Positions 11,633 to 38,684 of a stretch of DNA of 64,000 bases are shown here, in pieces (position 1 is the first letter of the stretch; every line of letters begins with the position of its first letter). The notes under the pieces are model-generated. The model was not told the DNA's origin. It saw nothing but the letters and a program-made list of their open reading frames with translations, and made no database searches. The stretch spans positions 1-64,000 of the forward strand of contig CBDUPA010000026.1 in NCBI GenBank assembly GCA_965368975.1. Reading direction: 5' to 3'. Source of the DNA: an uncultured bacterium (lineage in GTDB: Bacteria > Acidobacteriota > Thermoanaerobaculia > Multivoradales > JAHZIX01). A program made the position numbers and the translations under genes.

Positions 11633-11776
11633 GTGGTGTCCTTCCTGAAGTCCATCCCTGAGACGCCGCGAACCGGGGGGGGAGCCAAGCCGGCCCGGGG
11701 ACGCCTCGAAGAAACAAAGGTCCTGGGGTGCAGGACCTGTATAGTTTATCTCTTGGTTCGACGGCCAAGTAGGGGA

Positions 11777-14408: not shown

Positions 14409-14426
14409 CTTGACTCTCCTCAAGGA

Positions 14427-15836
14427 TCAGGAACGTCGGCGTAGCAAGCTCAGCAGCGCCAGTAGGGCGGCTCCGAGTCCCACGCCGCGCAGGATCTTCT
14501 CTTGTCTTTCCGCCCGGGCGACGGCATCGGCGTAGGGCATCGTGGTGTGGGCGACCAAGCCATAGAGGGGTTTCCACAGCTCTGGGAAGAGCCGATTCAA
14601 CCACACGTCGGCCTTCTTGCGCAGCAGGAAGGGCAGTGAACGGAGGCGTTGGCTCAATTCCAGGAAGTTTTGCTTCGACAATTCAGCCAGCGTGTCCGTG
14701 TGGACTTTGCGGCTCAGCTGGAACTGGTGGAACAGAGCGCGCCAATCGAGATCGAATTCGGTGGCGCCGCCTCGGCACCCCAGCAGAGCTTCTTGCAGGA
14801 GGTCGTCGAGCACGACACAGTCTTCGAGCGCAGCGTTCATGCCCTGGCCGAAGAAGGGATAGACCGCGTGCACGGCGTCGCCGATCAGCACTGCCCAGTC
14901 CTCGTGATACCAGGGCGCGGTGCGCACGGTGACCAGCCGGCCGACGGGATGGCTGAAGAACTGTTCGGTCAGCTCGGGCATCAGGGGCAGCAGATCTGGG
15001 AAGTAGGCTTCGAACAGCTCGCGTACGGCCTCGGGTGTCTGAATGTCGTCGAAGCAGAAGCGGCCGTCCTCACGCGCGACGGGCATGAAGAGCGTGACGG
15101 TGTGCGAGCCGTCGCGGTTCGAGTGAGTGACGATCAGAGCGTCACCGCGCGGCCACACGTGCAGGGCGTCGAGCTGAATCTGCGAGCTGCCGTCGCGGGC
15201 CGCGGGTAGGGTCAGTTCCTTGTAGCCCCAAGGAAGGTATTCCTGGTGGAAGTTCGCGCGAATGCCGGCGTGCAGGTGCTGGCGGACCACGGAGAAGGCG
15301 CCGTCGGCACCAATGAGCAGGTCCGCGTGCACCTTGTGCTCGGTCTCTTGATCCTGGTCGAGAAATGTCAGGGTGCGGGCGTCTTTGTCCAACTCGACGC
15401 AGCGCTGGCGGAAGTGGAAGCGGATCTGACCCGTGGCTTCGGCGGCGTCCAGCAGCACGCGGTTCAGCTCGGTGCGGTCGATCGAGTTGAGTGCTTCGCT
15501 CGGGTTCTTGCCGTAGGCATGGTAGGTGACGCTGCCGTCGAGGGCATGGACGGCGCGCCCGTGCATGACAACGGCACGGTCGAGCATGTGCTGGTCGAGA
15601 CCCGCGCGGCGCAGCGCGCGCAGGCCACGGGCGGTCAGGCCGAGGTTGATCGAGCGGCCGGCCATGCCGCCGGTCTGCCGTAGGTCGCCGCGGCGCTCGT
15701 AGACGTCGACCTGGAAGCCGGCGCGTGCCAGGTAGATCGACACCATCGAGCCGGCCAGGCCGGCTCCGACGACCACGACTGTCGGTCGTGCCGACGTGGA
15801 GGCGGCCTGTTCGTGAGGAGGCTGTGAGGTGGACAT
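14427..15836 (-). CDS. Kynurenine 3-monooxygenase-like FAD-dependent monooxygenase
   Basis: GAGLAG, GRSINLGL, GADGAFS, YKELTLP, LHVWPRG and GDAVHAVYPFFGQGMNAALED motifs; C-terminal hydrophobic anchor. Confidence 0.85.
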   Translation of the reverse strand: MSTSQPPHEQAASTSARPTVVVVGAGLAGSMVSIYLARAGFQVDVYERRGDLRQTGGMAGRSINLGLTARGLRALRRAGLDQHMLDRAVVMHGRAVHALDGSVTYHAYGKNPSEALNSIDRTELNRVLLDAAEATGQIRFHFRQRCVELDKDARTLTFLDQDQETEHKVHADLLIGADGAFSVVRQHLHAGIRANFHQEYLPWGYKELTLPAARDGSSQIQLDALHVWPRGDALIVTHSNRDGSHTVTLFMPVAREDGRFCFDDIQTPEAVRELFEAYFPDLLPLMPELTEQFFSHPVGRLVTVRTAPWYHEDWAVLIGDAVHAVYPFFGQGMNAALEDCVVLDDLLQEALLGCRGGATEFDLDWRALFHQFQLSRKVHTDTLAELSKQNFLELSQRLRSLPFLLRKKADVWLNRLFPELWKPLYGLVAHTTMPYADAVARAERQEKILRGVGLGAALLALLSLLRRRS

Positions 15837-15872
15837 GGGCCAGGATCTCCGAGGGAATCGCGCTCGGGCGCG

Positions 15873-16988
15873 TCAGTGTGGCCGCCGGGCCACGAGTAGG
15901 TGGTCACCGGTCGATTCGAGTACCGTGCAGGTCTCGATCTGCAGGCCGCTCTGTTCGAGCCAGCCGCGGACCTCGGCCAGGGTGTAGGTGCGCCCGCCCA
16001 GCAGATGGAAGAGGTTGAGGCGAAAGATGCGATGGAAGGCTTCGGCGACGGCGGGCAGTTCGGGCCGCTCCTCGCCCGCGAGCTGTTCGAGCACGACCAG
16101 CCGGCCTCCCGGCCGCAGCAGGGTACGCACCCGGCGTAGCAACTCCAGGTTGGTTTCCGCGGGAAAACTGTGCACGATGCTCAGTAGATACGCGACGTCG
16201 TAGCCGTCGCTGCTGGCGGACGCGTCGTCCCTGAGGTCGTCCTCCAGGAAGTTGGCTGCCCGGAACTCGACGCGCTCGGCCAGACCCGCGGCTTCGGCGT
16301 TCTCGCGCGCGACTTCCAGCGAGCTGGGTAGATCGACGACGGTGGCAGTGGCGCCCTCAATGCGGCGGCAGAAGGCCAGGGCGTGACGTCCGTGGCCACC
16401 ACCGATATCGATCAGCCGCGGTGGCTGATTTGCCGTCGAGGTCGAGACGTCCAACTGCAGATGCTCCAGAATCTCGTCGCCGTTGAGTTCCGCCAGTTGC
16501 CCGAGCATGGTCTGGAACACACGCTGCGCCGCCGGTCGCTCGTCGAGCCAGCTGTAGAGATGCAGTCCGGGCTGGCCACTCCGGATGGTCCCTTCGAGGT
16601 CGTGCCACAGCTCGAACAGCTGCAGTGACCAGAACTCGACGACGGCGGTGAAGTCGAAGCCCTCGCCTTCTGGGGGCCGCAGCCAGCGACGGGCAGCTTC
16701 GCTCAGGGTCCAGATCGGGTCCGGTTGCTGGGCTTCCAACTGTTGGGCATACCCGAAGCTCTCCAGTGCTTCGAGCAGGAAGCCGGTGGCGGCGGGATCC
16801 GTGTCCAGGCGCGCCGCCAGCTCGGTGGCGGGGGCGTCGCCCTCGGCCAGAGCTTCGAACAGGCCCAGGCGCAGCGCTGCCGCGGCGGCACGGAAACCGG
16901 CGGTGGCGAGCAGGTCGAGCTGCGGCGCCGGGGCATCGGCACTGTCGAAGAAGGCTCGGGTTTCTTCGTCGCTGAGACGGATCGGCAT
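15873..16988 (-). CDS. SAM-dependent O/N-methyltransferase (dimerisation domain + Methyltransf_2)
   Basis: AALRLGLFEALA..P.TELAARL N-terminal domain; IDIGGGHG, VDLP, LRPGGRLVVLE. Confidence 0.88.
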   Translation of the reverse strand: MPIRLSDEETRAFFDSADAPAPQLDLLATAGFRAAAAALRLGLFEALAEGDAPATELAARLDTDPAATGFLLEALESFGYAQQLEAQQPDPIWTLSEAARRWLRPPEGEGFDFTAVVEFWSLQLFELWHDLEGTIRSGQPGLHLYSWLDERPAAQRVFQTMLGQLAELNGDEILEHLQLDVSTSTANQPPRLIDIGGGHGRHALAFCRRIEGATATVVDLPSSLEVARENAEAAGLAERVEFRAANFLEDDLRDDASASSDGYDVAYLLSIVHSFPAETNLELLRRVRTLLRPGGRLVVLEQLAGEERPELPAVAEAFHRIFRLNLFHLLGGRTYTLAEVRGWLEQSGLQIETCTVLESTGDHLLVARRPH

Positions 16989-17003
16989 GTCGACTCCTCG
17001 GCT

Positions 17004-17828
17004 TCAGATCTCTGCGGCGTCCGATGGGAGCGGCGGTCTTGCTGGTGGTATTTCCTGCGGAGCCAGACCTCGTAGCTCGATCTCGGCTTCCACCAGGGCG
17101 TCGATGGCACGGTCGAGACGCTGCTCAGAGACGGACTGACCGAGGCGCCGTAGGTAGGCGCGCAGGAAGCCGACTCGGGCACCCGCGGTGTCGCGGGGGC
17201 GCGAGAGGAAGGGTAGGTCGGTCTCCACCATGTGACGGATCACCAGCATGGGGATCGGACTGCGCAGCGGCCGGATCTTGTCGCTGCGCAGGCCCGGCGT
17301 CTGATTCTTGGCGTGGAACTCACCGAGCATCAGGCCGCAACGGGTGAAATCCTTTTTCAGCGTTGCCTGGACGCCGTCGATCAGTTCCGGCACGGCTGCT
17401 TCGTCGATGTCCGGGAACAGCATCAAGAGGGCCTTGTTGACTGACTCATCGCCGTAGCGTGGTTCCTGGTGCAAGAAGACGTCGCGGTACTGGCTGGCGA
17501 TCTTGCCGACGTGCTCCGGCGCGGCGTCTGATTTCAGGTGGATGCACGTCAGGAACAACGAGTCGAGTTTCATCGCGATCGGCATGAAAGGACACACGGG
17601 GCCGGTGCGGCCGAGATCCGGGTGCGGCTGACACAGGAAGTCGCGCATCCAGGTGACGATGACGCACAGTGGCCCGAGATCCTCGGCGACGGGTTCTCCC
17701 GACTCGATCTGTGAGATGCGGTAGAGGGATGTCGGCGGCTGGGTAGCGTCATCTTCGCTGGGATTGCAGCCCTGGCGCAACGCGTCTTGCAGGCCCACGG
17801 CGGCGGGGGCGGTTGGTTTCTCGGTCAT
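17004..17828 (-). CDS. DUF6875-like protein (CPF...FH...RSPxP family)
   Basis: WMRDFLCQPHPDLGRTGPVCPF; GLMLGEFH; LRSPIPMLVIRHMVETDLPFL. Overlaps the MFS stop codon (ATGA). Confidence 0.7.
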   Translation of the reverse strand: MTEKPTAPAAVGLQDALRQGCNPSEDDATQPPTSLYRISQIESGEPVAEDLGPLCVIVTWMRDFLCQPHPDLGRTGPVCPFMPIAMKLDSLFLTCIHLKSDAAPEHVGKIASQYRDVFLHQEPRYGDESVNKALLMLFPDIDEAAVPELIDGVQATLKKDFTRCGLMLGEFHAKNQTPGLRSDKIRPLRSPIPMLVIRHMVETDLPFLSRPRDTAGARVGFLRAYLRRLGQSVSEQRLDRAIDALVEAEIELRGLAPQEIPPARPPLPSDAAEI

Positions 17829-19225
17829 GGTAGGTCCTTTGCTGTCTCTGCTCCAGGGGATTCGATGTCGAGCGGCGCGTCGGCTCGCGATGGTTCGAGG
17901 GCGTCCGGGATCTCATCTTCCAAACCACGCAGGCGCGGATAGAGAAGGCCGACACCGGCGACCAGGATGACGCTGGCACCGCCGAGGATGAACATGAAGG
18001 CGATTCCGCGGCCCGGGCCGGTGCCGATCAGTGCACCGACGCTGGTGGCCAGAGTGCCGCCGGGGGCCAGCAGGGGTTCGAAGACGTGGTCGGCCAGCGG
18101 TCCCGCCAGCACGTAGCCGAGCGGGACCGTGGCACGGGTCAGCATCTGGCGGGCGGCGAGGACCTTGCCGAGCACCCCGCTGGGCACCTTGGTCTGCCAG
18201 ATGATGTCGTTGCAGGCGAAGATGAAGGGCAGGGTGGCGAAGAAGAAGAAGGCGCAGACGCCGATCAGCAGCGACGATGGTCGCAATCCGTGCAGCATCA
18301 GGGCGATGCCGGCCAGCGCCAGGAAGCCGAGCACGCCGTGGATGCGCCGTGCCGGTCCGCCCCAGCTGCTCATCAGCATGCCGCCCACCAGCATGCCGAC
18401 GCCACCGATCGAGGTCAGCAGGCCGAGCATGGCGGCGCTGGTGAACTCCAGGATCATCGGGGTGATCAGCGGGCCGATGATGGCCAGCATGAAGCTGAAC
18501 CAGCCGATCACCGCCAGGATGCCGAGCAGCCCGGGATGGCGGAAAATGTAGGACAGGCCGAAGGTCAGCTCCTGCCGCAGGCCACCCTCACCCTCGTCAC
18601 CCGCCTCGGCAAGCCGCGGCGGGCGTGGGATGCGCACCGCGAGTAGCGTTGCCAGCGCGACCAGGAAGGTGACGACGTCGATGCCGACCACGCCGCTGAG
18701 GCCGACCTCGAGCAGCAGGTAGCCAGCCAGTGCCGGTGCCAGCACCTGGCGGATCGCCACCGCGGTCTGCGCCAAGCCGTTGGCGTGACCCAACTGCTTG
18801 CGGGGCACCAGCAGCGGGATCGACGCCAGGTAGGCGGGCTCTTGGAAGGCGTTGCCGAGAGACGAGATCGCGACCACCAGGTAGATGTGCCACACGTCGA
18901 GCTGGCCGCTGAGGGCCAGCAGCAGGACGGCCAGGCTGCCCAGACCGGCCATCAGGTCGGCAGCGATCATCATGGTGCGGCGGTCGTGGCGGTCGACCAG
19001 CGCACCGGCCAGCGGCGCGATCAGCAGACCGGGCAGTTCCAGGAAGAGGAAGATGAGGGCAAAGCTGGTCGCCGAACCGGTCTGCTGGTAGACCCACACG
19101 CCGAGGGCAAAGGCGGTCAGGCCGGTGCCCACCTGCGATACCACCTGACCGCTCCAGATGGTGTAGAAGGGCTTCATGTTGGCACGTTGTACTGGTGCTT
19201 CTTCTTGGCTCATAGGGGGGCTCAT
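17825..19225 (-). CDS. MFS exporter (DHA3/macrolide-efflux type)
   Basis: IWSGQVVSQVGTGLT.FALGVWVYQQTGS; GALVDRHDRR; about 12 TM helices. ATGA overlap with the NRPS stop codon. Confidence 0.92.
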   Translation of the reverse strand: MSPPMSQEEAPVQRANMKPFYTIWSGQVVSQVGTGLTAFALGVWVYQQTGSATSFALIFLFLELPGLLIAPLAGALVDRHDRRTMMIAADLMAGLGSLAVLLLALSGQLDVWHIYLVVAISSLGNAFQEPAYLASIPLLVPRKQLGHANGLAQTAVAIRQVLAPALAGYLLLEVGLSGVVGIDVVTFLVALATLLAVRIPRPPRLAEAGDEGEGGLRQELTFGLSYIFRHPGLLGILAVIGWFSFMLAIIGPLITPMILEFTSAAMLGLLTSIGGVGMLVGGMLMSSWGGPARRIHGVLGFLALAGIALMLHGLRPSSLLIGVCAFFFFATLPFIFACNDIIWQTKVPSGVLGKVLAARQMLTRATVPLGYVLAGPLADHVFEPLLAPGGTLATSVGALIGTGPGRGIAFMFILGGASVILVAGVGLLYPRLRGLEDEIPDALEPSRADAPLDIESPGAETAKDLP

Positions 19226-22200
19226 GCGGGAGGTACCGAGGTCTTCAGAGGTGGAAGTTTCAGCCTCGGCGTTTCGGGGCGCGTGCGGCGCAGGAAGCCG
19301 GTGCGTTCCAGGTAGTCGAAGTAGGTGGTGAGCAGGGTGTCGTCCGCGGGCGGGCAGACCAGGCCGGCAGCTTGCAGGCGGGCCTGCGAGTGGTGCTGCT
19401 CAAAAGTCGGCTGGCGGTCTTCCTCGAGCGTGTCGCCGAACAGGGCCAGGAAGGAGGCGAGGGCGTTTTCCTGCTGCGCCGCCACGGCGCTGCGCAGGGC
19501 CGTGACCCACTCGCCGTAGGGCACCAGGCGCAGCGGCTGCACATGGACGTTGACCCAGCGGGCCAGCTCGCGGAAAGGCAGCGTCCGGCGGTTGTAGAAG
19601 TGGTAGGCGCGGCCGAGTGTGCCTGTTCCGAGGTTGCCGCTATCGAGGTCCGTCGCCAGATCCGCCGCCAGGCAGACGATCGCCTTGGCCAGGTAGTCGA
19701 CGGGCATCAGGTCGATGGCGTGGGCGATGTCGGGCGCCAGGCCCAGTTGCACGCAGCCCTTGATCCAGCTGTAGAAGAGATCCTGGGTGTTGGCGGCGCC
19801 GCTGGACGCCGCACCGGAGACGCGGGCGGGACGCAGGATGTTGACCGGCAGACCGCGCTCGCGCGCTTGTTCGCACAGCTGCTCGGCGACCCACTTGCTC
19901 TGCTCGTAGCCCTTGTCCAGGCCATCCGGGCTCGGCGCGTCGTCTTCGGTCACCGTCGTGCCTTCGTAGGCTGGTTGCAGGAACAGGCCGAGCGTCGAGA
20001 CGAAGTGCACCGGTCGCGCGCCGTCGAGGGACGCTAGGCGCAGCACTTCCTCGGTCCCGTGGACATTGATGGCTTCGAGCGCGCTATAGGGGCGCACGAA
20101 GTCGACCGCGGCGGCGTTGTGGTGCAGTTCGCCGAGCTGGGCTGCCAGGCGCGCGAAGGCGGCGGCGTCGAGGCCCAGGCGCGGCTGGCTGAGGTCGCCG
20201 AGTACCGGCACCAGGCGTGCTGCATCCTTGCGCCCGGCGTCGCCCCGAGACTCGATGTCGCTCCACAGGTCATAGGCTTCGAGATTGCGCTGGATGCGCT
20301 GGCGTCCGGCCTCGATGGTGTCCGCGCGCACCAGGATGTAGATGTCACCGTTGCGGGCGCGCAGCAGCTCGTCGATCAGGTAGGCGCCGAGGAAGCCGGT
20401 GCCGCCAGTGACCAGCACGCCGGTGCCGGTGGGTCGGTCCTTCTCCGGACGGGGCTGCCCGGGACGGGACTCCCTCGGCTGGATCGCCGGGTCGAGGACG
20501 GCGCGAGCGCGCAGGTCGAGGGTTTGTGTCTCGCCCGCCCGCAGCGCCTCGACGACGCGAGCGAAGGCAGCGACGGTCGTGGCCTCGAACAGCTTGGTCA
20601 GTGGGATCTCCAGGAGCAGCTCCAGCTGCATGCGGCTAGCCAGCTGCATGGCGAGCAGGGAGCTGCCACCGGCGGCGAAGAAGTCGTCCTCGACCCCCAG
20701 TTGCGGCGCGGACAGCAGCTCGCGCCAGATCTCCAACAGCTGTGCCTCTAGCGGTGTGCGCGGTGTCACCGGCTCGGCGGTACCGACGGTCGGCGCTGGC
20801 AGAGCGCGCAGGTCGACCTTGCCGTTGGGGGTCAGCGGCAGGACTTCGAGCGGCACGATCGTCGACGGCACCATGTAGGCTGGGAGGTGGTCGGCGAGGA
20901 AGGTGCGCAGGGTGTCGAGGGCGGGTGGGGTGGTCTCTGTCGACTTCGCGACCACGTACCCCACCAACTGCGCCGCTGCTCCCTCACCGAAAGCCACCAC
21001 GACGGCCGACGCCACCTCTGGATGTCGCTGCAGCGTGGCCTCGATCTCACCCAGCTCGATGCGGAAGCCGCGGATCTTGACTTGACGGTCTCGGCGGCCG
21101 AGGAATTCGAGCACGCCTTGTGTGCTGGTGGCGTGCTCTCCGGAACGAACCGGTAGCCAGCGCGCCAGGTCGCCGGTGCGGTAGAGGCGCCCTCCGGGGT
21201 TTCCGCCGACCGGGGAACTGCCTTCGCCGCGGGCGAACGGATCGGGCACGAAGACCTCGGCGGTGCGCGCCGGCAAGCGCAGGTAGCCGAGTGCGATGCC
21301 GGCACCACCCAGGCACAGCTCTCCCGCCACGGACGCTGGCTGCGGCCGCAGATGCGTGTCCAGCACGTAGACGCGCACGTTGGGCAGCGGTGCACCGATC
21401 GGTAGGGCTGGACGCGTCACTTCCGAGCCGTCGCGCGTCGGGTAGGAGGTAGCGCAGACGGTCGCCTCGGTGGGGCCGTAGTGGTTGAACACGCGGGCCC
21501 GCGGCGATGCCAGCTGGGCCCAGGTTGCCAGCTGGTGCGTGTTCACTGCCTCGCCGCCGACCATCATGACTTCCAGGTCCGGCAACACGAGCTGGCGGTT
21601 GCGTGCCCTCCCCTGAGAGGCCAGTTTCTGAGAGACTAGCCAGTCGTCGAGCCAGGCCTTCCACAACGCTACCGCGGTGTCGATCACAGACACGCGGCGG
21701 CGCGTGCAGAAGCGGTCGAGCCGGTCGCCGGTCAGGCGGCCCGGTGCCGGGTGGAAGATCAGGCAGGCGCCGGCCGCCCAAGCGGGGAAGAGGTCGCCCA
21801 CCGAGGCATCGAAGTGCAGTGGCGGTATGGCCAGGAAGCGGTGGGTCTCGCGCAGTCCGTGGTGCTGGACGAAGGCGTACGCCAGGTTGACCGCGCTACG
21901 GTGGCTGACGGCGACCCCCTTGGGGCGGCCGGTCGAGCCTGAGGTGGTGATGACGTAGGCCGGGTAGTCGGGGCTAAAGCCGGCGCTCGAGCTGGTGGGC
22001 AGCGGCGTGGCCGGTGCTGAGTGGCCGCGCGGCGGCACCAGACGGCCTTTGTAACCGGTCAGCCGGGCCGTGCCGATCAGCACGCGGCAGCCGTTGTCTT
22101 CGAGGATCTGGCGCTGGCGCTCGGCCGGGGCGCCCGGATCCAGGGGGAGGTAGGCGGCGCCCGCCAGGTGGATCGCGACGATGGCGACCATGGCGTTGCA

Positions 22201-25200: not shown

Positions 25201-28200
25201 ACGGCGCTGGGCGTCCTCGGCTGTGTGTTCGGAGGTATCACCGGTGGCCAGGATCAGCTCACGCAGGTCGAGGCCGAGCAGTGGCTCGAGCAGCGCGCAG
25301 CCTTCGTCCAGCTGGCGGCGGAAGACCTCTTCGTTGGCGTACAGCTGGCGCGCCATGCCGGCATGCTGGGTGCCCTGTCCTGCGAAGAGAAACACCACGG
25401 ACGGTGGGCTCGGCGGTAGCTGGCCGAGCTGGCGCGCGCGCGGAGTGAGACCCCGCAGCTGCTGCACCGCCTGCGCCGGATCAGCCGCATCGACGATGGT
25501 CGTCAGGCGATGCTCGAAGTCCTTGCGACCGCGGTGCAGGGTGAAGGCGATGTCGGCGAAGTCGAGGCCTGCTGGTGATGCCGGCTGTTCCTCGAGGTGC
25601 TGGGCCAGACTGGCAGCATTGGCTTCCAAGGCTGCGGCCGTGCGGGCCGACAGGCGCAGCAGTTGCATGGGGTGACCCGGCCTGTCTGCGGCGCTCTCGG
25701 AAGCTGCCTCTTCCAGGATCACATGCGCGTTGGTGCCGCCGATGCCGAAGGCCGAGACCGCGGCGCGGCGCGGCGTCTCGCCCGCCGGCCAGGGTCGCGC
25801 CTCGGCTGGCACGTAGAAGGGCGAATCTTCGAGGTCGAGTTCCGGGTTGGGTGTCTGGAAGTGCAGGTTGGGTGGGATCTGCCGGTGCTGCAACGACAGC
25901 GCGGCCCGGATCAGGCCACCGACGCCGGCCGCGGTGTCCATGTGGCCGACCTGCGTCTTGAACGACGACAGCGCGATCGACTGCTCCTCCACGTGGGTTT
26001 GCTGTGTGTACGCGCGACGCAGCGCGTCGACCTCGATCGGGTCGCCGAGCACGGTGCCGGTGCCGTGACACTCGACGTAGCCCAGGCTGGCCGGTGCCAC
26101 GCCGGCCCGCTGCAACGCCTTGACGATCACCCGCGTCTGCCCCTCGATGCTGGGCGCCGTGTAGCCAACCTTGGCGTCGCCGTCGTTGTTGATCGCCGTG
26201 CCCTTGATCACGGCCACGATCGGGTCGCCGTCGGCGCGCGCGTCGGCCAGGCGCTTGAGCACCACCATGCCGGCGCCGCTCGACTCGACGGTGCCGCCGG
26301 CACGGGCGTCGAAGGCGCGGCAGTGACCGTCCGGCGAGGCGATGCTGTCGGCCACGTGCAGGTAGCCGACGCCGTGCGGGATCTGCAGCGTGCAACCGCC
26401 CGCCAGCGCCATGTCGCAGTCGCCGGAGAGCAGGCTCTGGCACGCCAGGTGGACCGCCACCAGTGAGGTCGAGCAGGCGGTCTGCACCGATACCGCCGGG
26501 CCGCGCAGGCCGAGCTTGTAGGCGACGCGCGTGGCGGTGAAGTCCGGGCCGGTGGCGATCATCGATTGCACTTCGCCCTGCTGGTGCAGGATCTCTGGCC
26601 GCGTCAGCAGGTGCTTGACCAGATAGCCCGGCCCGCCTATCCCGGCGAAGACGCCGACTTCGCCGGGATAGGTGTCGCCAGCCCAGCCGGCCCGTTCGAG
26701 CGCTTCCCAGGCGCACTCGAGCAGCAGGCGCTGCTGCGGGTCGGTGAGCGCGGCTTCGCGAGCCCCGAAGTCGAAGAAGGCTGCGTCGAAATCGCGGATG
26801 TGGTCGACCTTGGTCCCGGCCGGCACGTAGTCCGGGTCGTCCACCCGCGCCGGATCTTCGCCCGCTTGCAGCAACTGCTCGCGGTCGAAGCGCTCGATCG
26901 CCTCGACGCCGTCGGTGATGCACCGCCACAGCGCGTCGATGTCCGGGGCGTGCGGGAAGCGGCCGGCCACCGCGACGATGGCGATGTCACGCCCGCTCGC
27001 GCTACCTGCTGCCGCCGTCGGGTGCCGTTCTGGTAGGAGCTGTTCTGGTGAGTGGACGGGGCGAGCGGATGCCGACTTGTCTCCCCCCGGCGCGCCGAGG
27101 AACCCCGCCAGCCGTCGTACGGTCGTGTGTTGGAGCAAGTCCAGGATGCGCACGCGCGGCCAGCGCTGCTTGAGGCGCAAGTGCAGGCGCGGCAGCAGCA
27201 GCGAATGGCCGCCGAGGTCGAAGAAGTTCTTGTCCGCCGGCACCGCGTCGAGGCCGAGTACCTGCCGCCAGAGTTCGGCGACGAACGCCTCCGCCTCGTC
27301 GGCCGGTGGCGCTCCCGCGGCCGTCTCGTGCTGCTCGTCTGGCAGCGGTCGCAGTGCCAGCGCCTTGCGGTCGATCTTGCCATTGGGGGTCAGCGGTAGT
27401 TCGTCGAGGCGGTCGAAGACCGCCGGCATCATGTAGCCGGGCAGGCGGGCGGCGGCGAAATCGCGCAGATCGGCGTCGGAGACGGTGGTCCCCGCTCCCG
27501 CGATGACATAGGCCACCAACCGCTGTCCGCGCACCAGCACTGCCGCCCCCGTCACCGATGGATGACGGCGCAGCGCGGCTTCGACTTCCCCCAGCTCGAT
27601 GCGATACCCGTGCAGCTTGACTTGGTGGTCCAGTCGGCCGAGGAGCTCCAGCTCGCCATCGGCCCGCCAGCGAGCGCGGTCACCGGTGCGATAGAGCCGC
27701 TGACCGGCCTTGCCGAAGGGATCGGGCAAGTAACGCTCGGCGGTCAGGCCGGGCCGGCCGAGGTAGGCGCGTGTCACGCCCTCGCCCGCCAGCATCAGCT
27801 CGCCGAGGACGCCGATGGGCACCGCCTCGCCGCGCGCGTCGAGCACGTGGACCTGGGTGTTGTCGATTGGACCACCGATCGTCGGCTCGGCGTCACGGCC
27901 GCGCGATAGCAGCTTGCCCGATAGCAGCTTGCCCGGCACCAGCGAATACGTCGAGTAGGTGGTGTCCTCGGAAGGACCATAGAGGTTGTAGACCTTCACC
28001 GCCTTCGATGCCGCGTACACCTGGTCGACCAGCGCCCGCCGCAGGGGTTCGCCGGCCAGGTTGATCACCCGTGCGGAGTCTGGGATGCCTTCGGCGGCGG
28101 CGAGCTCGGCGATGGCCGAGGGCACGGTGTTGAGCAGCGTGACGCGCTCGCGGGCGGGGTGTTCGAGCAGATGCAGCGCGTCGCGAGCCAGGATCACCGT

Positions 28201-31200
28201 GCCGCCTTGGGTCAGCGGCAGGAACAGCTCGTAGATCGACAGGTCGAAGCACACCGAGGTCACTGCCGCCACGCCCGCCAGCTCGTCCGGCGGGAAGATA
28301 CGCGCCGCCCAAGTCAGCATGGCGACGGCGTTGCGGTGGCTGATCTCGACACCTTTGGGGCGGCCGGTCGAGCCGGAGGTATAGATGAAGTAGGCGCGCT
28401 GCCGCGGGTCGACGCGGGACGCTGCCGGGGCTGCCGCTGCGTCTGCTGTCGGCGCCGCGAGGTCCAGCTCGTCGAGGAACAGCAGTTCTGGCCCCTTGGC
28501 CGTTTCGTCGGAGGGCTTGTCGACCAGCTCATCGAACAAATGGGCCAGCGCGCGGTCGGTGAGCACGCGTCGAGCACGCGTGTCCTGCACCATGAAGGCG
28601 AGGCGCTGCGGTGGGTAGGTGGGGTCGAGGGGCAGGTAGCTGCCACCCGCTTCCAGCACCGCCAGCAGGGCGACGACCAGTTCGGGCGTGCGCGGCAGGC
28701 AGACCGCCACCGCCTCCTCGGGCGCCACGCCGCGCCGACGCAGTAGCGCGGCCAGTCGGTGTACCCGCTGCCACAGCTGGGCGTAGGCCAGGGTCTCGAC
28801 CGCCTCGGAGGTTCCTCCGGAGGTCCCCTCGGCGACTCCTTCGGCGATCAGCGCCGTCTGCGCTGGCGTCTGTGCCGCCTGCTGGGCCACCAGAGCGTGC
28901 AGCGTCACATCGGGCGGCAGCGGGCGCTCGGTGCGGTTGACCAGGTCGATCAGCTGGCGGTCGGCGGCCGGTACCAGCGGTAGTCGCCAAAGCGGCAGTT
29001 CGGGGTGGTCGAGCACGCCCTGGAGCAGCAGTCGATAGGCCTCGAACAGGCGTTCGATGGTGGTGGCGTCGAACAGTGCGGTGGCGTACTCGACGGACAC
29101 GCGCAATCCCTCGGCGCGGTCGAAGATGGTCACTTCGACGTCGAACTTGGCCGTGCCGCTGTGGCCGTGGAGCGGGCGCTGGTCGAGCCCGGGAAGCGAC
29201 GGGGCCAGTTCCATCGCCAGCACCTGGAACAGCACCTGGAAGAACGGCGTGCGTGCGGCATCGCGCGTCGGTTCGAGCTCCTGCACCAGCCGCTCGAAGG
29301 GCAGCGCCTGGTGGATCTGCGCTCCCACCACCGTCTGGCGCGTGTTGGCCAGCAGATCGGCGAAAGTGCGGTTGCCATGCTCTGCAGCGGCCAGGTCGAG
29401 GCGCAGTACCAGGGTGTTGGCGAACAGGCCCACCAGGTTCTCGAACTCGGTGCGGTAGCGGCCGGCCGACGGCGTGCCTACAGCCAGGTCGTGGTGGCCG
29501 CTGAAGCGTGCGAAGAGGACGTAGAAGGCAGCGAGAAGTGCCGTGAACAGCGTCTCACCGTGCTGGCGGGCGAGGCCACGCAGGCCCTCGGACAGCTCGC
29601 CGGGCAGGGTCACTACATGCAGTGCGCCGTCCGCCTGCTGCACCCTCGGCCGTGGTCGGTCCGCGGGCAGGTCGGCCGGCTCCAGACCATCGAGCTGACG
29701 GCGCCAGTAGGTCACCAGTCGCTGCTGCTCGGCTTCCTCCAGCCAGCTCGCCTGCCAGGCGGCGAAGTCGGCGTACTGCAGCTCGGGCTCGGGTAGCGGT
29801 GACGCTTGCCCCTGGTGGAAGACGTTGTAGAGCTGCGACATCTCCTTGGCGATCAGGTCCTGCGACCAGCCGTCCGTGGCGATGTGGTGGATGTTGAGGA
29901 TCAAGACGTGCAGCTCGGCACCTGCCCTCAGCAGACGCGTGCGCCATACCGCGTCGTGCTCCAGGTCGAAGGGCGCGCCGGCTTCTCGCGCCACCAAGTC
30001 CCTGGACTTGCGCTGGCGGTCGGCGTCCTGGAGGCCGCTCAGGTCGACGATCTCGAGGTGCCAGGGCCGTGGCGGATCGACCAGCGCCACCGGCTCGCCG
30101 TCGCGACTGCCGTAGCGCGTGCGCAGCACGGCATGGCGGCGGGCGACATCGGCCAGGGCGCGGTCGAGGGCCTGGATGTCGAGGGCACCGTGTAGCTCGA
30201 AGGCGGAAGGGATGTTGTAGAGCGCCGAACTCAGCTCCAGCTGGTGTAGGAACCACAGTCGCCGCTGGCCGAAGGAGAGCGGTGCTGGCCGCGTCGGGTC
30301 GAGGCGCGGAATCGGTGGCAGCGCCGCCGCCGTCGAGGTGCCGGCCGCCTGGACCTCTTGGATGCGCCGCGCCAGCGCGGCGACGGTGGGGTGCTCGAAG
30401 ATCTCGTGCAGCGACAGTTCCAGGCCCAGGATGTCGCGCACGCGAGCCAGCAGCTGGGTAGCCAGCAGCGAGTGACCACCGAGGGCGAAGAAGCTGGTCT
30501 CGACGCCCACCCGCTCGGCGCCCAGCACCTCGCACCATAGCGCCGCGATTTGTCGCTCGAGATCGTTGCGCGGCTCGACCAACTCAGCCTCGCTGACGCC
30601 AGCGTGTTCGAAGTCGAAGGCCGGCAGGGCTCGCCGATCGACCTTGCCATTGGCGTTCAATGGCAGTTCATGAAGGAACTGGAAGCCGGTGGGGACCAGG
30701 TACTCCGGCATGCTCTGCCCGAGGAACGACCGCAGCTCTTCGACGCTCGGTGCCGCGACCTCGGCTCCAATCACGACGAAGGCCACCAGCCGCTTGGAGC
30801 CTCGGCCGTCGTCCTGCATCACCACCGCCCGCTCCTTGATCGCCGGGTGCTGACCCAGCTGCGCCTCGATCTCACCCAGCTCGACGCGGAAGCCGCGCAC
30901 CTTCACCTGGTGGTCGATGCGGCCGATGTAGTCCAGCACCCCGCTGGGTAGCCAGCGCACCAGGTCGCCGGTGCGGTAGACGCGCGCGCCAGGCTGCTCG
31001 TGACCCACGCGTGCCGAGCAGGGATGGGGGATGAAGACGCCCGCGGTCAGCGCCGGTCGCCGGTGGTAGCCCTGCGCCAGACCGGGGCCACCGACCACCA
31101 GCTCGCCCGCTGCACCAATTGGTGCCGGCCGTTGCCAGCGGTCGAGCACCAGTACCTCGGTGTTGCCGACCGGCTCGCCGATCGGTACCGACGTCGCGCC

Positions 31201-32973
31201 CGGCGGCACCTCCGGTACCCGGTAGCAAGTGGTGAAGGTGGTCGCTTCGGTCGGGCCGTAGCCGTTGATGTGCACCGTCGGACCTTGGGCCATCGACGCG
31301 CGCACGGCGTCCGGATCGCAGCGCTCGCCGCCGAACATGAGCGTGCCGACGTGGGCCAGCAGGTCCGGCACCTGGCGCGCATACTGGTGGAACAGCGACG
31401 CCGTCAGCCACAGCACGGTCGGTCGCAGGCGCTCGAGGGCCGTGCGCAAGCGCTCGGCGGACAGCAGCGTCTCGCGCTCGATACCCAGGAGGTGGCCGCC
31501 GTGCAGCAGTGAGCCCCAGAGTTCCAGTGTGGCGACGTCGAACGAGGTGTTGGACGCCTGTACGATGCGCTCCTCGGGGCCAAACTCGTAGTAACGGCCG
31601 CCGAACACCAGGCGCACGACGGCTCGTTGCGGAATTACCACACCCTTCGGCCGGCCGGTCGAGCCCGAGGTGTAGATCACATACGCTGGGTACTCCGGGC
31701 CGACGCGCGGTAGTGGTGGTTCTTCCTGAGAGGCTAGTTCGCCCTCAGCAACTGGCGCCGTGAACAATTCTTCGTCGACATACAGCACGCGGCAGCCCTG
31801 CGCCGCCAGCTCGTCGAGCGGCAAGCGTGCCGCCTGCACCTTGTCGGTGATCAACACCGGCGTCGCGGTGTCTTCGGCCATCCACACCAGTCGCTCGGCT
31901 GGATAGGCGGGGTCCAGCGGTGCGTACGCCGCGCCCGCCAAGATGATCGCCACGAAGCTGGTGATCAGCTCTGGCGAGCGTTCCAGGCAGACCGCCACCA
32001 GGTCGCCCGGTCGCACGCCGTGCGCGCGCAGATGGTGCGCCAGGCAGCGCGCTCGCTCGTCCAGTTGCCGGTAGTTCAGACACACTTCGCCGTAGCTCAC
32101 CGCCGGCCGTTCCGGGTACGTCTCGACGGCGTGCTGGAACAGCTCCGTGAGACCGCGGTCGAGCGGTGCCTGCGTGCGCGCCGCACCGTTCCAGGCGTCG
32201 AGCAACTGCCACTGGCCGTCGCTCACCATCTCGAGCTCCGTCAGTCGCGACGACGGCGTCGCCGCCACGGCCGCGAGCAAGCGGGCAAAGCTCGCCAGCA
32301 GGTTCTCGATCGTCGCGGGATCGAAGAGCTCGCTCTCGTAGACGGCGCTCAGATAAGGCTCGGTGTCCGAGACCGTCACCAGCGTTACCGCCAGATCGTG
32401 CGCAACCGGCACCGTGGTTTCACGATCGACGCCGCGGTGCTCGAACAAGACCTCGGTGAACGGATTTCTTGTCCCAGCGTGGGCCTCTGGTCGCAACGCG
32501 GAGACCAGGTCTGACCACGGAACCGCCTGCTCACGAGTCTTCCGTGCGAGGGTCCGAACGTGTGTGAGCAACTGGGCGAAGCTTGGCTGCCCGCCGACTT
32601 CGGCCGGGACCTCGACCGGGACCTCGACCGGGACCTCGACCGGGGCTGCCGTCAGCTGCACACGCACGACGGTCAGGTCGTCGTGCATCCACCCTACCGC
32701 CAGGTCCGTATGCCCTGTCAAGCGGCTGAGCCAAGCCGAGAACGCGGCGAGGCCCGCGACTGACAGATCTGGGTCCAGGTCTCGTAGCCGCTCGATCAGC
32801 GCCGCCGACAACGCACGAACTTGCCGTCCCGGTTTGCCTAGGGACGTCTTCGTTCGCGTCCGGTCGATCGGCAACTCCAAGCGTCCCGGCTCGGCGCCCG
32901 CTAGGCGGTCACGCCAAGCTTCGATCAGTTCCGCCTCGGGTTCACTGCGGCCGCTTGGTTGACTCGGTGGCAT
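19222..32973 (-). CDS. Hybrid NRPS-PKS-NRPS: truncated C-A1-T-C-A2-T-KS-AT-ACP-C-A3-T-R (terminal reductase)
   Basis: Three (Y/T)TSGSTGRPKG A domains. Carrier motifs GGHSL x3 and GGSSL. C domains HHIATDG and HHSILDG. KS TACSTS/HGTGT/GHMD. AT GHSLG. R domain TGGTGFLG/ST/YEQSK. AAGGA RBS before the ATG at 32973. Confidence 0.95.
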   Translation of the reverse strand: MPPSQPSGRSEPEAELIEAWRDRLAGAEPGRLELPIDRTRTKTSLGKPGRQVRALSAALIERLRDLDPDLSVAGLAAFSAWLSRLTGHTDLAVGWMHDDLTVVRVQLTAAPVEVPVEVPVEVPAEVGGQPSFAQLLTHVRTLARKTREQAVPWSDLVSALRPEAHAGTRNPFTEVLFEHRGVDRETTVPVAHDLAVTLVTVSDTEPYLSAVYESELFDPATIENLLASFARLLAAVAATPSSRLTELEMVSDGQWQLLDAWNGAARTQAPLDRGLTELFQHAVETYPERPAVSYGEVCLNYRQLDERARCLAHHLRAHGVRPGDLVAVCLERSPELITSFVAIILAGAAYAPLDPAYPAERLVWMAEDTATPVLITDKVQAARLPLDELAAQGCRVLYVDEELFTAPVAEGELASQEEPPLPRVGPEYPAYVIYTSGSTGRPKGVVIPQRAVVRLVFGGRYYEFGPEERIVQASNTSFDVATLELWGSLLHGGHLLGIERETLLSAERLRTALERLRPTVLWLTASLFHQYARQVPDLLAHVGTLMFGGERCDPDAVRASMAQGPTVHINGYGPTEATTFTTCYRVPEVPPGATSVPIGEPVGNTEVLVLDRWQRPAPIGAAGELVVGGPGLAQGYHRRPALTAGVFIPHPCSARVGHEQPGARVYRTGDLVRWLPSGVLDYIGRIDHQVKVRGFRVELGEIEAQLGQHPAIKERAVVMQDDGRGSKRLVAFVVIGAEVAAPSVEELRSFLGQSMPEYLVPTGFQFLHELPLNANGKVDRRALPAFDFEHAGVSEAELVEPRNDLERQIAALWCEVLGAERVGVETSFFALGGHSLLATQLLARVRDILGLELSLHEIFEHPTVAALARRIQEVQAAGTSTAAALPPIPRLDPTRPAPLSFGQRRLWFLHQLELSSALYNIPSAFELHGALDIQALDRALADVARRHAVLRTRYGSRDGEPVALVDPPRPWHLEIVDLSGLQDADRQRKSRDLVAREAGAPFDLEHDAVWRTRLLRAGAELHVLILNIHHIATDGWSQDLIAKEMSQLYNVFHQGQASPLPEPELQYADFAAWQASWLEEAEQQRLVTYWRRQLDGLEPADLPADRPRPRVQQADGALHVVTLPGELSEGLRGLARQHGETLFTALLAAFYVLFARFSGHHDLAVGTPSAGRYRTEFENLVGLFANTLVLRLDLAAAEHGNRTFADLLANTRQTVVGAQIHQALPFERLVQELEPTRDAARTPFFQVLFQVLAMELAPSLPGLDQRPLHGHSGTAKFDVEVTIFDRAEGLRVSVEYATALFDATTIERLFEAYRLLLQGVLDHPELPLWRLPLVPAADRQLIDLVNRTERPLPPDVTLHALVAQQAAQTPAQTALIAEGVAEGTSGGTSEAVETLAYAQLWQRVHRLAALLRRRGVAPEEAVAVCLPRTPELVVALLAVLEAGGSYLPLDPTYPPQRLAFMVQDTRARRVLTDRALAHLFDELVDKPSDETAKGPELLFLDELDLAAPTADAAAAPAASRVDPRQRAYFIYTSGSTGRPKGVEISHRNAVAMLTWAARIFPPDELAGVAAVTSVCFDLSIYELFLPLTQGGTVILARDALHLLEHPARERVTLLNTVPSAIAELAAAEGIPDSARVINLAGEPLRRALVDQVYAASKAVKVYNLYGPSEDTTYSTYSLVPGKLLSGKLLSRGRDAEPTIGGPIDNTQVHVLDARGEAVPIGVLGELMLAGEGVTRAYLGRPGLTAERYLPDPFGKAGQRLYRTGDRARWRADGELELLGRLDHQVKLHGYRIELGEVEAALRRHPSVTGAAVLVRGQRLVAYVIAGAGTTVSDADLRDFAAARLPGYMMPAVFDRLDELPLTPNGKIDRKALALRPLPDEQHETAAGAPPADEAEAFVAELWRQVLGLDAVPADKNFFDLGGHSLLLPRLHLRLKQRWPRVRILDLLQHTTVRRLAGFLGAPGGDKSASARPVHSPEQLLPERHPTAAAGSASGRDIAIVAVAGRFPHAPDIDALWRCITDGVEAIERFDREQLLQAGEDPARVDDPDYVPAGTKVDHIRDFDAAFFDFGAREAALTDPQQRLLLECAWEALERAGWAGDTYPGEVGVFAGIGGPGYLVKHLLTRPEILHQQGEVQSMIATGPDFTATRVAYKLGLRGPAVSVQTACSTSLVAVHLACQSLLSGDCDMALAGGCTLQIPHGVGYLHVADSIASPDGHCRAFDARAGGTVESSGAGMVVLKRLADARADGDPIVAVIKGTAINNDGDAKVGYTAPSIEGQTRVIVKALQRAGVAPASLGYVECHGTGTVLGDPIEVDALRRAYTQQTHVEEQSIALSSFKTQVGHMDTAAGVGGLIRAALSLQHRQIPPNLHFQTPNPELDLEDSPFYVPAEARPWPAGETPRRAAVSAFGIGGTNAHVILEEAASESAADRPGHPMQLLRLSARTAAALEANAASLAQHLEEQPASPAGLDFADIAFTLHRGRKDFEHRLTTIVDAADPAQAVQQLRGLTPRARQLGQLPPSPPSVVFLFAGQGTQHAGMARQLYANEEVFRRQLDEGCALLEPLLGLDLRELILATGDTSEHTAEDAQRRLATLDLGQPALFLVEYALAQLWQSWGIEPRAMLGHSLGELVAATLAGVFERDTALRLVAARGRLMAATPTGAMLAVTRPAAEVEARLRETGMAETLSLATVNSPSDCVVAGTVAAIEAFETTLAAEEIETRRLHLTTAAHSLLMEPILDAYRAEVEHAAPKTPERPFVSCITGRWIEPAEAASIDYWTRHLRHAVRFGDSLQRLFELHQSEPGGIVLLELGPGHTLSTLVRRNESQGTNHPVIRTLPHPRDETSDLAQVLEAVGRLWLLGVDVDPNTFWAGQERRRVVLPTYPFERQRCWIEPGRRGATTPGMVPAEDAAPGSVGPGHVGPGPAEPARTPDAVPLGGTTAAVADAWRELLGLETVDPDAEFLDLGGHSLLATQLAHLLRRRFGVEVRATEILGKAPTVAEQAALIDARRPMTGELAPAPRSQPLPLSDSQERLWLLAQLGADGDGDGGSAAYNLPVVLHLHGRLDAGALRRALAELARRHEVLRTAFVLDDGKPVQRIEEPGPVELPVIDLRRIRGAETFVRQQTLRDLARPMDLARAPLWRARLWHVREEAADDDESKSKSQEACYLGLTMHHSILDGWSGRVLFRDLAALYSQQSGTDDTAAARLPELPIQYADYAVWQRRRLDEAGKASAPGQDGLAPQLEYWRRQLAGAPPILELPLDHARPSVHSFRGRRLTFSVPGSVLAGLRTLARQAKATMFPVVLAAFQLLLARWSGQWDVCVGTPVANREEPRTQELIGFFVNTVVLRTVIDPNSDFARLVARVKEVVTGGFANQELPFERLVSELRPQRDAGVNPLFQVMLVFHNTPPVGDDFAGIPFEMLEPDSETSHFDLTLSLEEQAPQAGTKEGNGQLAGLIDFSTDLFETDTIERLIDGFQTLLAAVASQADGIDVAALPVMSPAEATRVVVEWNATTVDWRQSLAVPEATPHDCLHDLVLRQATRRPHAIAVEAADGRLSYGHLVRHARALAARLRRTGVAPGDLVGLALPGSCNAMVAIVAIHLAGAAYLPLDPGAPAERQRQILEDNGCRVLIGTARLTGYKGRLVPPRGHSAPATPLPTSSSAGFSPDYPAYVITTSGSTGRPKGVAVSHRSAVNLAYAFVQHHGLRETHRFLAIPPLHFDASVGDLFPAWAAGACLIFHPAPGRLTGDRLDRFCTRRRVSVIDTAVALWKAWLDDWLVSQKLASQGRARNRQLVLPDLEVMMVGGEAVNTHQLATWAQLASPRARVFNHYGPTEATVCATSYPTRDGSEVTRPALPIGAPLPNVRVYVLDTHLRPQPASVAGELCLGGAGIALGYLRLPARTAEVFVPDPFARGEGSSPVGGNPGGRLYRTGDLARWLPVRSGEHATSTQGVLEFLGRRDRQVKIRGFRIELGEIEATLQRHPEVASAVVVAFGEGAAAQLVGYVVAKSTETTPPALDTLRTFLADHLPAYMVPSTIVPLEVLPLTPNGKVDLRALPAPTVGTAEPVTPRTPLEAQLLEIWRELLSAPQLGVEDDFFAAGGSSLLAMQLASRMQLELLLEIPLTKLFEATTVAAFARVVEALRAGETQTLDLRARAVLDPAIQPRESRPGQPRPEKDRPTGTGVLVTGGTGFLGAYLIDELLRARNGDIYILVRADTIEAGRQRIQRNLEAYDLWSDIESRGDAGRKDAARLVPVLGDLSQPRLGLDAAAFARLAAQLGELHHNAAAVDFVRPYSALEAINVHGTEEVLRLASLDGARPVHFVSTLGLFLQPAYEGTTVTEDDAPSPDGLDKGYEQSKWVAEQLCEQARERGLPVNILRPARVSGAASSGAANTQDLFYSWIKGCVQLGLAPDIAHAIDLMPVDYLAKAIVCLAADLATDLDSGNLGTGTLGRAYHFYNRRTLPFRELARWVNVHVQPLRLVPYGEWVTALRSAVAAQQENALASFLALFGDTLEEDRQPTFEQHHSQARLQAAGLVCPPADDTLLTTYFDYLERTGFLRRTRPETPRLKLPPLKTSVPPA
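32604..32644. repeat. in-frame 12-bp tandem repeat (PVEV x3) in the NRPS N-terminus
   Basis: CCGGGACCTCGA x3 plus a partial copy. Confidence 0.9.
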
Positions 32974-33302
32974 CGGGTTCCTTTTCAAGGCAACAGCACA
33001 AATCAACCGCAAGGCAGCGCTTAGGCTGCCACGGTACTCGTTGCCCTGTGACCTGGCGACTGTGTTCAGTCTTTAGTGAAGAGGAACCCGGATGTCCTGT
33101 GATCAGAGCATGCAGACGCTCGGGAGACGACCTTCGCCGAGCCCAAGCTGAGAGGTCCAGTATAGACCAGCTTCGATTTCGAGTGGTTGGGTTAGTACTG
33201 AGGTGCTCACGGTAAAGGTCTTCGCGCGGACTCTGTCTGGTTGTCGCGTCGGTGGCCGGCGCGTGATCGCGGATCTCGCTGAAGTAGTCGGCGGTCCGAG
33301 TG

Positions 33303-36290: not shown

Positions 36291-38684
<2,394 letters not shown>

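Follow-up and report, generated by a model that had tools for sequence, protein, structure and literature searches.

An acidobacterial six-gene operon predicted to assemble a hybrid peptide-polyketide around a modified tryptophan

The first 64,000 nucleotides of contig CBDUPA010000026.1 (forward strand; assembly GCA_965368975.1), which come from an uncultured bacterium of the Acidobacteriota, are referred to here as the window. From about position 32973 down to 12210, the minus strand carries what reads as an intact six-gene operon. It comprises a single-gene megasynthase that joins nonribosomal peptide synthetase (NRPS) and polyketide synthase (PKS) modules to a terminal thioester reductase (R) domain, a major facilitator superfamily (MFS) exporter, a cytochrome P422 of the DUF6875 family, an O-methyltransferase, a flavin monooxygenase of the kynurenine 3-monooxygenase (KMO) family and a DUF5916 protein (Table 1). 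Judged from its sequence, the operon would build a hybrid peptide-polyketide around a modified tryptophan, a reading to which we give a probability of about 0.68.

The six genes, all on the minus strand, are linked by ATGA overlaps or by gaps of 3-36 nt. An earlier annotation made from the DNA letters of this stretch, hereafter the original prediction, had placed the system at 14427..32973 and had described the MFS gene as coupled to the megasynthase, which the ATGA overlap between the two bears out. Its synthase and downstream genes stand, but its extent left out the probably co-transcribed DUF5916 gene (12210-14423); we count this gene into the operon because the order MFS-DUF6875-monooxygenase-DUF5916 recurs in two genomes of the same order (G018 and G027) and in seven Oxalobacteraceae loci. 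It had also foreseen oxidation and methylation, for which genes are indeed present, but had left unnamed the DUF6875 protein, the key to the building block. The megasynthase frame (19222..33012) is open throughout and holds 4,583-4,596 codons depending on the start (4,596 aa from the TTG). The ATG at 32973 is the likelier start, since it lies seven bases after a Shine-Dalgarno-like AAAGGAA. The synthase has a G+C fraction of 0.68-0.705, and its flanks, 14 kb below and 8 kb above, one of 0.62-0.66. The best solved relatives of the O-methyltransferase are MfnG and SibL-type small-molecule methyltransferases; for the DUF5916 protein a sequence search of the PDB gave no match, and a protein atlas search returned only DUF5916 clusters. 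The 435-nt gap upstream of the megasynthase start contains 5.2 tandem copies of a 14-nt unit (33303-33375, 96% matches), which may be a regulator binding array.

Table 1. Genes, megasynthase domains and flanking signal of the operon, in window positions. Domains were located with Pfam, run on the entire protein and on eight overlapping fragments of it; residues are numbered from the TTG at 33012.
Feature	Position	Strand	Details
Megasynthase gene (NRPS-PKS-NRPS-R)	19222..32973	-	open frame extends to TTG at 33012
Half C domain, residues 33-270	32203..32916	-	Pfam Condensation, profile positions 198-454 of 456 only; HHxxxDG absent
A1, residues 292-790	30643..32139	-	code DVLWMGGTFK, Val-like
T1, residues 821-884	30361..30552	-	GGHSL
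C2, residues 910-1354	28951..30285	-	HHIATDG
A2, residues 1376-1879	27376..28887	-	code DLYNNALTYK, Ala-like
T2, residues 1911-1972	27097..27282	-	carrier serine motif
KS, residues 2008-2385	25858..26991	-	intact Cys-His-His C2178, H2316, H2357
AT, residues 2540-2876	24385..25395	-	GHSLGE; TAAH motif
ACP, residues 2955-3019	23956..24150	-	Pfam
C3, residues 3037-3502	22507..23904	-	HHSILDG
A3, residues 3552-4065	20818..22359	-	code DAGDMGHVCK
T3, residues 4091-4153	20554..20742	-	GGSSL
Thioester reductase R, residues 4201-4445	19291..20418	-	GGTGFLG, YEQSK; TIGR01746
MFS exporter gene (Mef/EntS-like)	17825..19225	-	ATGA overlap with megasynthase stop
Cytochrome P422 gene (DUF6875, PF21780)	17004..17828	-	ATGA overlap with MFS stop
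O-methyltransferase gene	15873..16988	-	Methyltransf_2 and dimerisation domain (Pfam)
FAD monooxygenase gene, KMO family	14427..15836	-	Pfam, NCBIfam and structure matches
DUF5916/CBM9 gene	12210..14423	-	3 nt past monooxygenase gene; probably last of operon
Terminator-like hairpin, T-rich tail	11718..11738	-	downstream of DUF5916 gene; consensus match only

Pfam matches, with E-values down to 1e-230, and a motif check reproduce the domain order originally predicted for the megasynthase, half C-A1-T-C-A2-T-KS-AT-ACP-C-A3-T-R without KR, E or TE (C, condensation; A, adenylation; T, thiolation). No Pfam match to a KR, DH, ER, E, TE or MT domain is found in the protein, and the interdomain linkers are too short for one; as KR, DH and ER are lacking between AT and ACP, the β-keto group is expected to be retained. 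The HHxxxDG motif occurs solely at residues 1042 (C2) and 3187 (C3), the four carrier serines lie in GGHSL (three times) and GGSSL (once), and the KS triad is embedded in TACSTS (C2178), HGTGT (H2316) and GHMDTAAG (H2357). The R domain looks redox-competent, in keeping with the reductive release that had been proposed: its NAD(P)H motif GGTGFLG and its YEQSK are intact, and it scores 296.9 bits against TIGR01746 (cut-off 213), with the myxochelin reductase MxcG region as the best equivalog. The protein appears to fall outside the AusA-type NRPSs that make pyrazinones from dipeptide aldehydes, since a PKS module and a third module intervene; the AusA equivalog NF047350 reaches 90.2 bits against a cut-off of 2500 and covers the R region only.

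To read the ten Stachelhaus positions, the three window A domains were aligned with 138 from related loci, A1 serving as the anchor through the PheA spacing. The codes extracted in this way are identical to the three that had previously been read by hand. That of A1 lies one mismatch from DALWMGGTFK, a valine code in the available text of PMC3943440, which agrees with the Val-like assignment already made. Of the solved structures, 8jbr, the C-A-PCP structure of McyA2, gives A2 its best single-stretch match (442 bits), and for McyA2 the accessible part of the report describes a preference for L-Ala in adenylation assays (bioRxiv 10.1101/2023.11.13.566838). The pocket stretches of the two align without a gap, and the nine code positions covered read DLYNNALTY in A2 and DLFNNALTY in McyA2, differing only by Phe to Tyr at position 3. 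Because its pocket matches that of McyA2, A2 is best regarded as an alanine domain, as had been supposed; a Cys-type A2 was also considered and is not supported by this alignment. In a full-text search of a library of papers, DAGDMGHVCK was found in none and, of six other codes, only DALWMGGTFK was found; the text and supplement of an A-domain signature paper (PMC12283262) contain none of the codes.

The DUF6875 protein matches PF21780 at 192.5 bits, against a cut-off of 24.5. In the available text of Ma et al. (bioRxiv 10.64898/2025.12.11.692455), this family is renamed cytochrome P422 and described as cysteine-ligated heme proteins acting on free L-tryptophan; 84 soluble members are reported there, with 1-hydroxy-Trp formed by 41, 7-hydroxy-Trp by 18 and 6-hydroxy-Trp by 15, and with C-S bond formation in thienodolin by two members. 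The same text gives RxGxVCP as the heme motif and Rx(M/L)x3Dx2F, Dx2(Q/H)x3K and MxGxF as substrate motifs, and it ascribes N1-hydroxylation to an NRPS-linked subclade of Cyanobacteriota and Pseudomonadota. The window protein, which we assign by sequence to the P422 family, has all four motifs (RTGPVCP, RHMVETDLPF, DGVQATLK and MLGEF), and several of the motif residues are invariant in four of four aligned proteins, namely itself and its three closest kin of the same order. Its closest relatives are NRPS-linked Pseudomonadota proteins (45-53% identity), and since that subclade is one with N1-hydroxylation, N1 would be the first guess for the site of attack, a slightly better than even bet; hydroxylation at C6 or C7 is possible. 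A PDB sequence search with the protein gave no match. The P422 enzymes Mc170, Ba855, Ss890, ThnD and ZigI share with it the PF21780 fold family and the heme and tryptophan motifs. A DUF6875/methyltransferase pair installs a methoxy group according to the available text of a JACS paper (PMC13307353). The window P422 is paired with a methyltransferase, as ZigI is with ZigH, and, unlike ZigI and the enzymes of Ma et al., it is also paired with a KMO homologue. Elsewhere, in genome G036 (L007 9352-10935), one protein joins a P422 domain with an aminoacyl-tRNA editing domain of the YbaK/ProX type (PF21780 and PF04073), a fusion which hints that modified tryptophan can mischarge tRNA and require proofreading.

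The monooxygenase aligns with the structures of Pseudomonas fluorescens KMO (PfKMO) at 280-285 bits; its top NCBIfam match is VioC at 207.9 bits, far under the cut-off of 760. In PfKMO, the substrate carboxylate is held by R84, Y98, N369 and Y404, according to the available text of PMC6376250. All four are conserved in the alignment of the window protein, and because of this we regard it as a KMO homologue that probably binds a free, kynurenine-shaped α-amino acid. L213 and F238 of the hydrophobic pocket are unchanged, and Val is a conservative substitute for I224; further changes are L226 to His, M222 to Leu, M373 to Leu and H320 to Phe. Tryptophan would be nearly isosteric with kynurenine, whose C3 would correspond to C7 of the indole.

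The substrate of A3 was approached through the distribution of its code. An alignment of four P422 proteins, used as the query against 185,579 species genomes, gave 285 relatives; the 80 best loci were retained together with 10-kb flanks. Exact copies of DAGDMGHVCK are present in 41 of these 80 loci, on A domains that are only 42-47% identical to A3, and the hosts include Lysobacteraceae, Janthinobacterium, Rugamonas, Ahniellaceae, Chitinophaga, Acidobacteriota and actinomycetes; the pocket is thus identical in every letter in Pseudomonadota, Actinomycetota and Acidobacteriota. All 41 loci encode an MFS protein, 40 a KMO homologue and 38 an R domain; an O-methyltransferase occurs in four, all from actinomycetes, and KS or AT in none (nor within 10 kb in any of the 80). 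The sole other A domain has the code DILQxGxxWK, which we take to be Gly-like, in 29 of the 41. The code is absent from 39 loci. Seventeen of them have a KMO homologue, and most of these are truncated on the upstream side or have an NRPS that exceeds the 10-kb flank, one (L058) being without an NRPS; in the 22 without a KMO homologue, the A domain beside P422, where present, has a different code such as DIEFIGHICK. As a control, 240 unrelated large synthetases were gathered without regard to P422. DAGDMGHVCK occurs in none of their 925 A-domain hits (81 of them fragmentary), the nearest differing by at least four mismatches. Because the exact code tracks the P422 and KMO cassette and is absent from the controls, A3 most likely loads a tryptophan oxygenated by P422 and the KMO homologue, and most simply it would recognize what the two enzymes make jointly. 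Methylation would probably follow loading, since clusters that lack the methyltransferase share their A3 code with those that have it.

Two further code patterns were seen in this survey. In Lysobacter and relatives (L060, L056 and L059), the DAGDMGHVCK module is internal, and in L060 it is preceded by a DMENMGAVDK domain, a code that we take to resemble those for hydroxy-ornithine; this pair of codes fits a metal-binding peptide. In Acidobacteriaceae (L063, L070-L074 and L078), P422 adjoins a single A domain with the code DIEFIGHICK or DILFIGHICK, with no match to a KMO homologue or MFS protein. These codes have G-H-x-C-K in common with DAGDMGHVCK and may represent a pocket for singly hydroxylated tryptophan.

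The operon thus appears to belong to an orphan family defined by a P422/KMO/MFS cassette and an R-terminated DAGDMGHVCK module. Clusters of this family in Lysobacteraceae, Janthinobacterium, Rugamonas, Duganella and some Acidobacteriota typically consist of C-A(Gly-like)-T-C-A(DAGDMGHVCK)-T-R, MFS, P422 and a KMO homologue. They resemble the window in the terminal C-A-T-R (42-47% identical), in its code, in the order of the MFS, P422 and KMO genes and, in some cases, in a DUF5916 gene. Unlike them, the window has Val and Ala modules and a KS-AT-ACP before the terminal module, and an O-methyltransferase gene between those for P422 and the KMO homologue. Five actinomycete loci (L079, L082-L084 and L087, from Saccharothrix, Melissospora and Actinosynnema) combine, as the window does, a KMO homologue, P422, MFS and an R-terminated DAGDMGHVCK module with an O-methyltransferase, here 36-39% identical to that of the window. 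Four of the five start with a Val-like code; in the fifth, L083, the available stretch ends before that point. They differ from the window in a synthetase split over several genes, in the lack of a PKS and in a Gly-like module before the terminal one. Compared with the common Gly-X-R form, the new elements here are the Val-Ala-PKS front end, the methyltransferase and the single-gene layout.

Closer counterparts of the PKS-bearing architecture lie within the same order. With A3 as the query in three same-order genomes, we found a 54%-identical A domain within a 5,413-aa open frame of genome G027 (contig 5, 12524-28762). Window residues 33-4574 align collinearly to residues 1018-5401 of this frame, with 44.4% identity over 4,627 columns. 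The G027 frame reads DLFNNALTYK, DAFWLGGTFK, DIFNGALVYK, KS-AT(HAFH)-ACP, DAGDMGHVCK and R, also without KR, its first two codes being taken as Ala and Val; it differs from the window in one extra N-terminal module (DLFNNALTYK) and in a canonical AT motif, HAFH instead of TAAH. HHLFTDG stands at residue 957 in its first full C domain, about 60 residues ahead of the point where the alignment with the window protein starts. Since the window protein aligns from inside this full C domain, its half C is most simply explained by a deletion that took out an Ala module together with the catalytic portion of the C domain after it. Upstream of the megasynthase, a tblastn search at E<=10 detected no missing N-terminal portion of a C domain in any frame. 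The MFS-P422-KMO-DUF5916 cassette of G027 is on another contig (contig 1, L006 8481-14312), with no adjoining NRPS, and no methyltransferase lies within the 38 kb examined near the megasynthase frame. As cassette and megasynthase are on separate contigs there, precursor genes and synthetase can evidently be unlinked. A third genome of the order, G405, encodes a larger NRPS-PKS line in which P422 is embedded, along with an MFS protein, a KMO homologue and a DAGEVGHVCK A domain that is followed by KS-AT; the Val-Ala-PKS front end and the single-frame layout are common to the window and the G027 frame only, G405 sharing just the PKS step, placed after the residue loaded by its A3-like domain. In G018 (L005 and L008), the homologous NRPS ahead of MFS-P422-KMO is broken into many frames, as would follow from misassembly or from gene decay.

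P422 is found in 4 of 41 close relatives (the bacterium's own genome included), in none of five same-family genomes and in 11 of 401 genomes of the class, in none of these at more than 47% identity. KS-AT pairs 50-54% identical to that of the window are present in 47 of the 401 and, being common in the class, are no family marker by themselves. Two regional homologue searches, which ranked multi-module synthases by summed score and supplied the 240 control synthetases, gave at best 43-54% identity, and no protein combining KS, C, A and R was among the 120 matches listed in each. The statement that this architecture matches no known cluster therefore needs qualification: no product has been described for it, but a collinear relative exists in G027 and the terminal module and cassette are widespread. 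The same-order relatives are likewise Thermoanaerobaculia of the Acidobacteriota, the phylum that had been called poorly explored.

Among characterized systems, the precedent invoked earlier for the first half of the line is real. In the available text of PMC13691573, CorA, the coralinone synthetase of Corallococcus exiguus, has the order A-T-C-A-T-KS-AT-ACP, and its dipeptidyl β-keto thioester cyclizes and oxidizes spontaneously to 5-alkyl pyrazinones. By domain order, and within what that source gives, the window shares the A-T-C-A-T-KS-AT-ACP arrangement and the lack of reductive PKS domains, the CorA intermediate having a free amine; unlike the window, which passes the chain to C3-A3-T3-R, CorA ends at the ACP, with hydrolysis and decarboxylation. 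For the second half, there are synthetases in which reductive release follows an aromatic residue, namely LtxA/TleA (Val-Trp-R, lyngbyatoxin and teleocidin) and the saframycin-type lines (Ala-Gly-Tyr*-R), and for saframycin the modified aromatic amino acid is supplied by dedicated enzymes that include a heme enzyme and methyltransferases. These lines differ from the window in using other building-block enzymes and in having no PKS module.

Based on the above data, we propose the following route. P422 would hydroxylate free L-tryptophan on the indole, and the KMO-family flavoenzyme would add a second oxygen to the free amino acid. A1-T1 would start the chain with valine, the preceding half C being a dead remnant, and C2 would add alanine. 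KS-AT-ACP would then contribute one unreduced C2 unit, giving Val-Ala-CH2-CO-S-ACP, in which the carbonyl of Ala becomes a ketone, and C3 would join this chain to the oxygenated tryptophan loaded by A3. Using NAD(P)H, R would release the chain as an aldehyde or alcohol; the O-methyltransferase would act after loading or after release, and the MFS pump, perhaps with the DUF5916 protein, would export the product. The free amine of Val could close onto the ketone to form a (dihydro)pyrazinone head, as in CorA. The dihydropyrazinone would be the easiest closure, because the amine lies six atoms from the ketone; arguing by analogy, we rate a pyrazinone head group at slightly below even odds. Alternatively, the β-ketoamide could close onto the aldehyde by a Knoevenagel reaction, as happens with fungal PKS-NRPS products.

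In its most specific form, which we put forward only tentatively, P422 and the KMO homologue would jointly make an undescribed doubly oxygenated tryptophan that is read by a dedicated pocket, and the product would be a pyrazinone-headed, O-methylated, PKS-extended peptide aldehyde. The amino acid might be, for example, 1,7- or 6,7-dihydroxytryptophan, or a metal-binding cyclic hydroxamate of the N-hydroxy-oxindole type.

Several observations weigh against the proposal that the operon builds its product around a modified tryptophan. Starting on a half C may impair initiation. The AT reads an atypical TAAH where HAFH or YASH is usual; HAFH denotes malonyl and YASH methylmalonyl specificity, and because of this motif we treat the choice of extender unit as insecure. 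The operon encodes no ferredoxin or reductase to serve P422, and code identity is the sole basis for the timing of methylation. CmnG, which we take to be a domain for the basic residue capreomycidine, is the only solved A domain to match the A3 pocket stretch below E=1e-8 (54 bits), and the two share Asp at code position 4. Lastly, the bacterium's own genome encodes a second KMO-like protein (39% identity, contig 14, among unrelated genes) and a kynureninase-like gene (L092 8543-9897, contig 21) that adjoins NAD synthase and is split over two frames, an N-terminal 174-aa open reading frame and a C-terminal one of 279 aa.

These last two genes, together with the strong KMO match and its conserved carboxylate binders, could indicate that the A3 residue is of the kynurenine type, for example 3-hydroxykynurenine. 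The KMO homologue would then be a true KMO, and P422 would supply 7-hydroxy-Trp or modify the ring later. SibL, one of the solved relatives of the O-methyltransferase, presumably acts on 3-hydroxykynurenine. A bypass of 7-hydroxy-Trp into the kynurenine pathway through tryptophan 2,3-dioxygenase is described in the available text of Ma et al. (bioRxiv 10.64898/2025.12.11.692455). However, the operon has no dioxygenase or formamidase gene, and tryptophan 2,3-dioxygenase (PF03301) is without a match in the 99.3%-complete assembly of the bacterium itself, in a search whose control matched 2 of 14 genomes. Searches for the IDO and 3-HAO families matched neither this genome nor any control genome and therefore carry no weight either way. 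On a kynurenine route P422 would in addition be redundant with KMO, and the pocket has His in place of L226 of PfKMO. We therefore treat a kynurenine route to the A3 residue as a minority rival, unlikely but the strongest of the alternatives.

The half C could also signal decay, the deletion of the first module and half a C domain having left a synthase that is unable to start and makes no product. The match of this half C to an inner stretch of a complete C domain in the longer G027 frame, the frame changes that riddle the G018 relative and the patchy occurrence of P422 among kin (0 of 5 in the family, 11 of 401 in the class) are consistent with such a loss. Yet the frame, with 70% G+C, runs through about 4,590 codons without a stop and has lost none of its catalytic motifs; the genes that follow are likewise undamaged and remain coupled; and A-T initiation modules function without a C domain. 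We consider decay improbable.

The original prediction had suspected a basic residue for A3, presumably because of the Asp at code position 4. In that case A3 would load Arg, Lys, Orn or a cyclic guanidine, the product would be an isopropyl/methyl-pyrazinone acetamide with a reduced basic tail, and the oxidase and methyltransferase would only decorate it. The CmnG match and the Asp at code position 4 speak in favor of this view. The pyrazinone head would be supported by the CorA precedent, as given in the available text of PMC13691573. The distribution of the code argues in the other direction: 40 of the 41 loci that have it combine a member of the Trp-hydroxylating P422 family with a KMO homologue, and none of the 925 control hits has it. 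In 29 of the 41 loci, the Gly-like and DAGDMGHVCK domains are the only A domains, and P422 and the KMO homologue, which keep the residues for a free aromatic amino acid, would otherwise be left without a route into the peptide. A basic residue thus seems very unlikely. The least probable alternative is that the R-like domain is a non-reductive Dieckmann cyclase of the fungal PKS-NRPS R* type giving a 3-acyl tetramic acid: although a β-ketoamide with an aminoacyl thioester, as the domain order implies, would be the exact tetramate precursor, R* domains typically lack the catalytic Tyr, whereas here GGTGFLG and YEQSK are intact, so that the motifs speak against this release, TIGR01746 is matched above cut-off with the MxcG region as best equivalog, and 38 of the 41 related loci place the same R after this A domain although, lacking a PKS, they have no β-keto group.

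Beyond the operon, the window contains a glutaminyl-tRNA synthetase with a C-terminal GatB/YqeY domain (36291-38894), an architecture that is found in Deinococcus. At 39322-47065 there are three long overlapping minus-strand open reading frames (1,045, 1,555 and 872 aa) with no Pfam match and a marked positive AT skew. A 908-aa protein encoded at 49183-51909 joins an MFS transporter domain to a spermidine-synthase domain.

The suspected basic residue is here replaced by a concrete hypothesis, an oxygenated tryptophan supplied by a heme enzyme family that was first described in 2025. The G027 relative illustrates how an assembly line may change by the loss of a module, with half a condensation domain left as a scar. 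The ten-residue code DAGDMGHVCK could serve as a simple genome-mining marker for such chemistry, and culturable Lysobacter, Rugamonas and Janthinobacterium, which have the simpler cluster, offer a route to the amino acid itself. If the modified residue is indeed a doubly oxygenated tryptophan, the Gly-X-R relatives would make a family of secreted metabolites.

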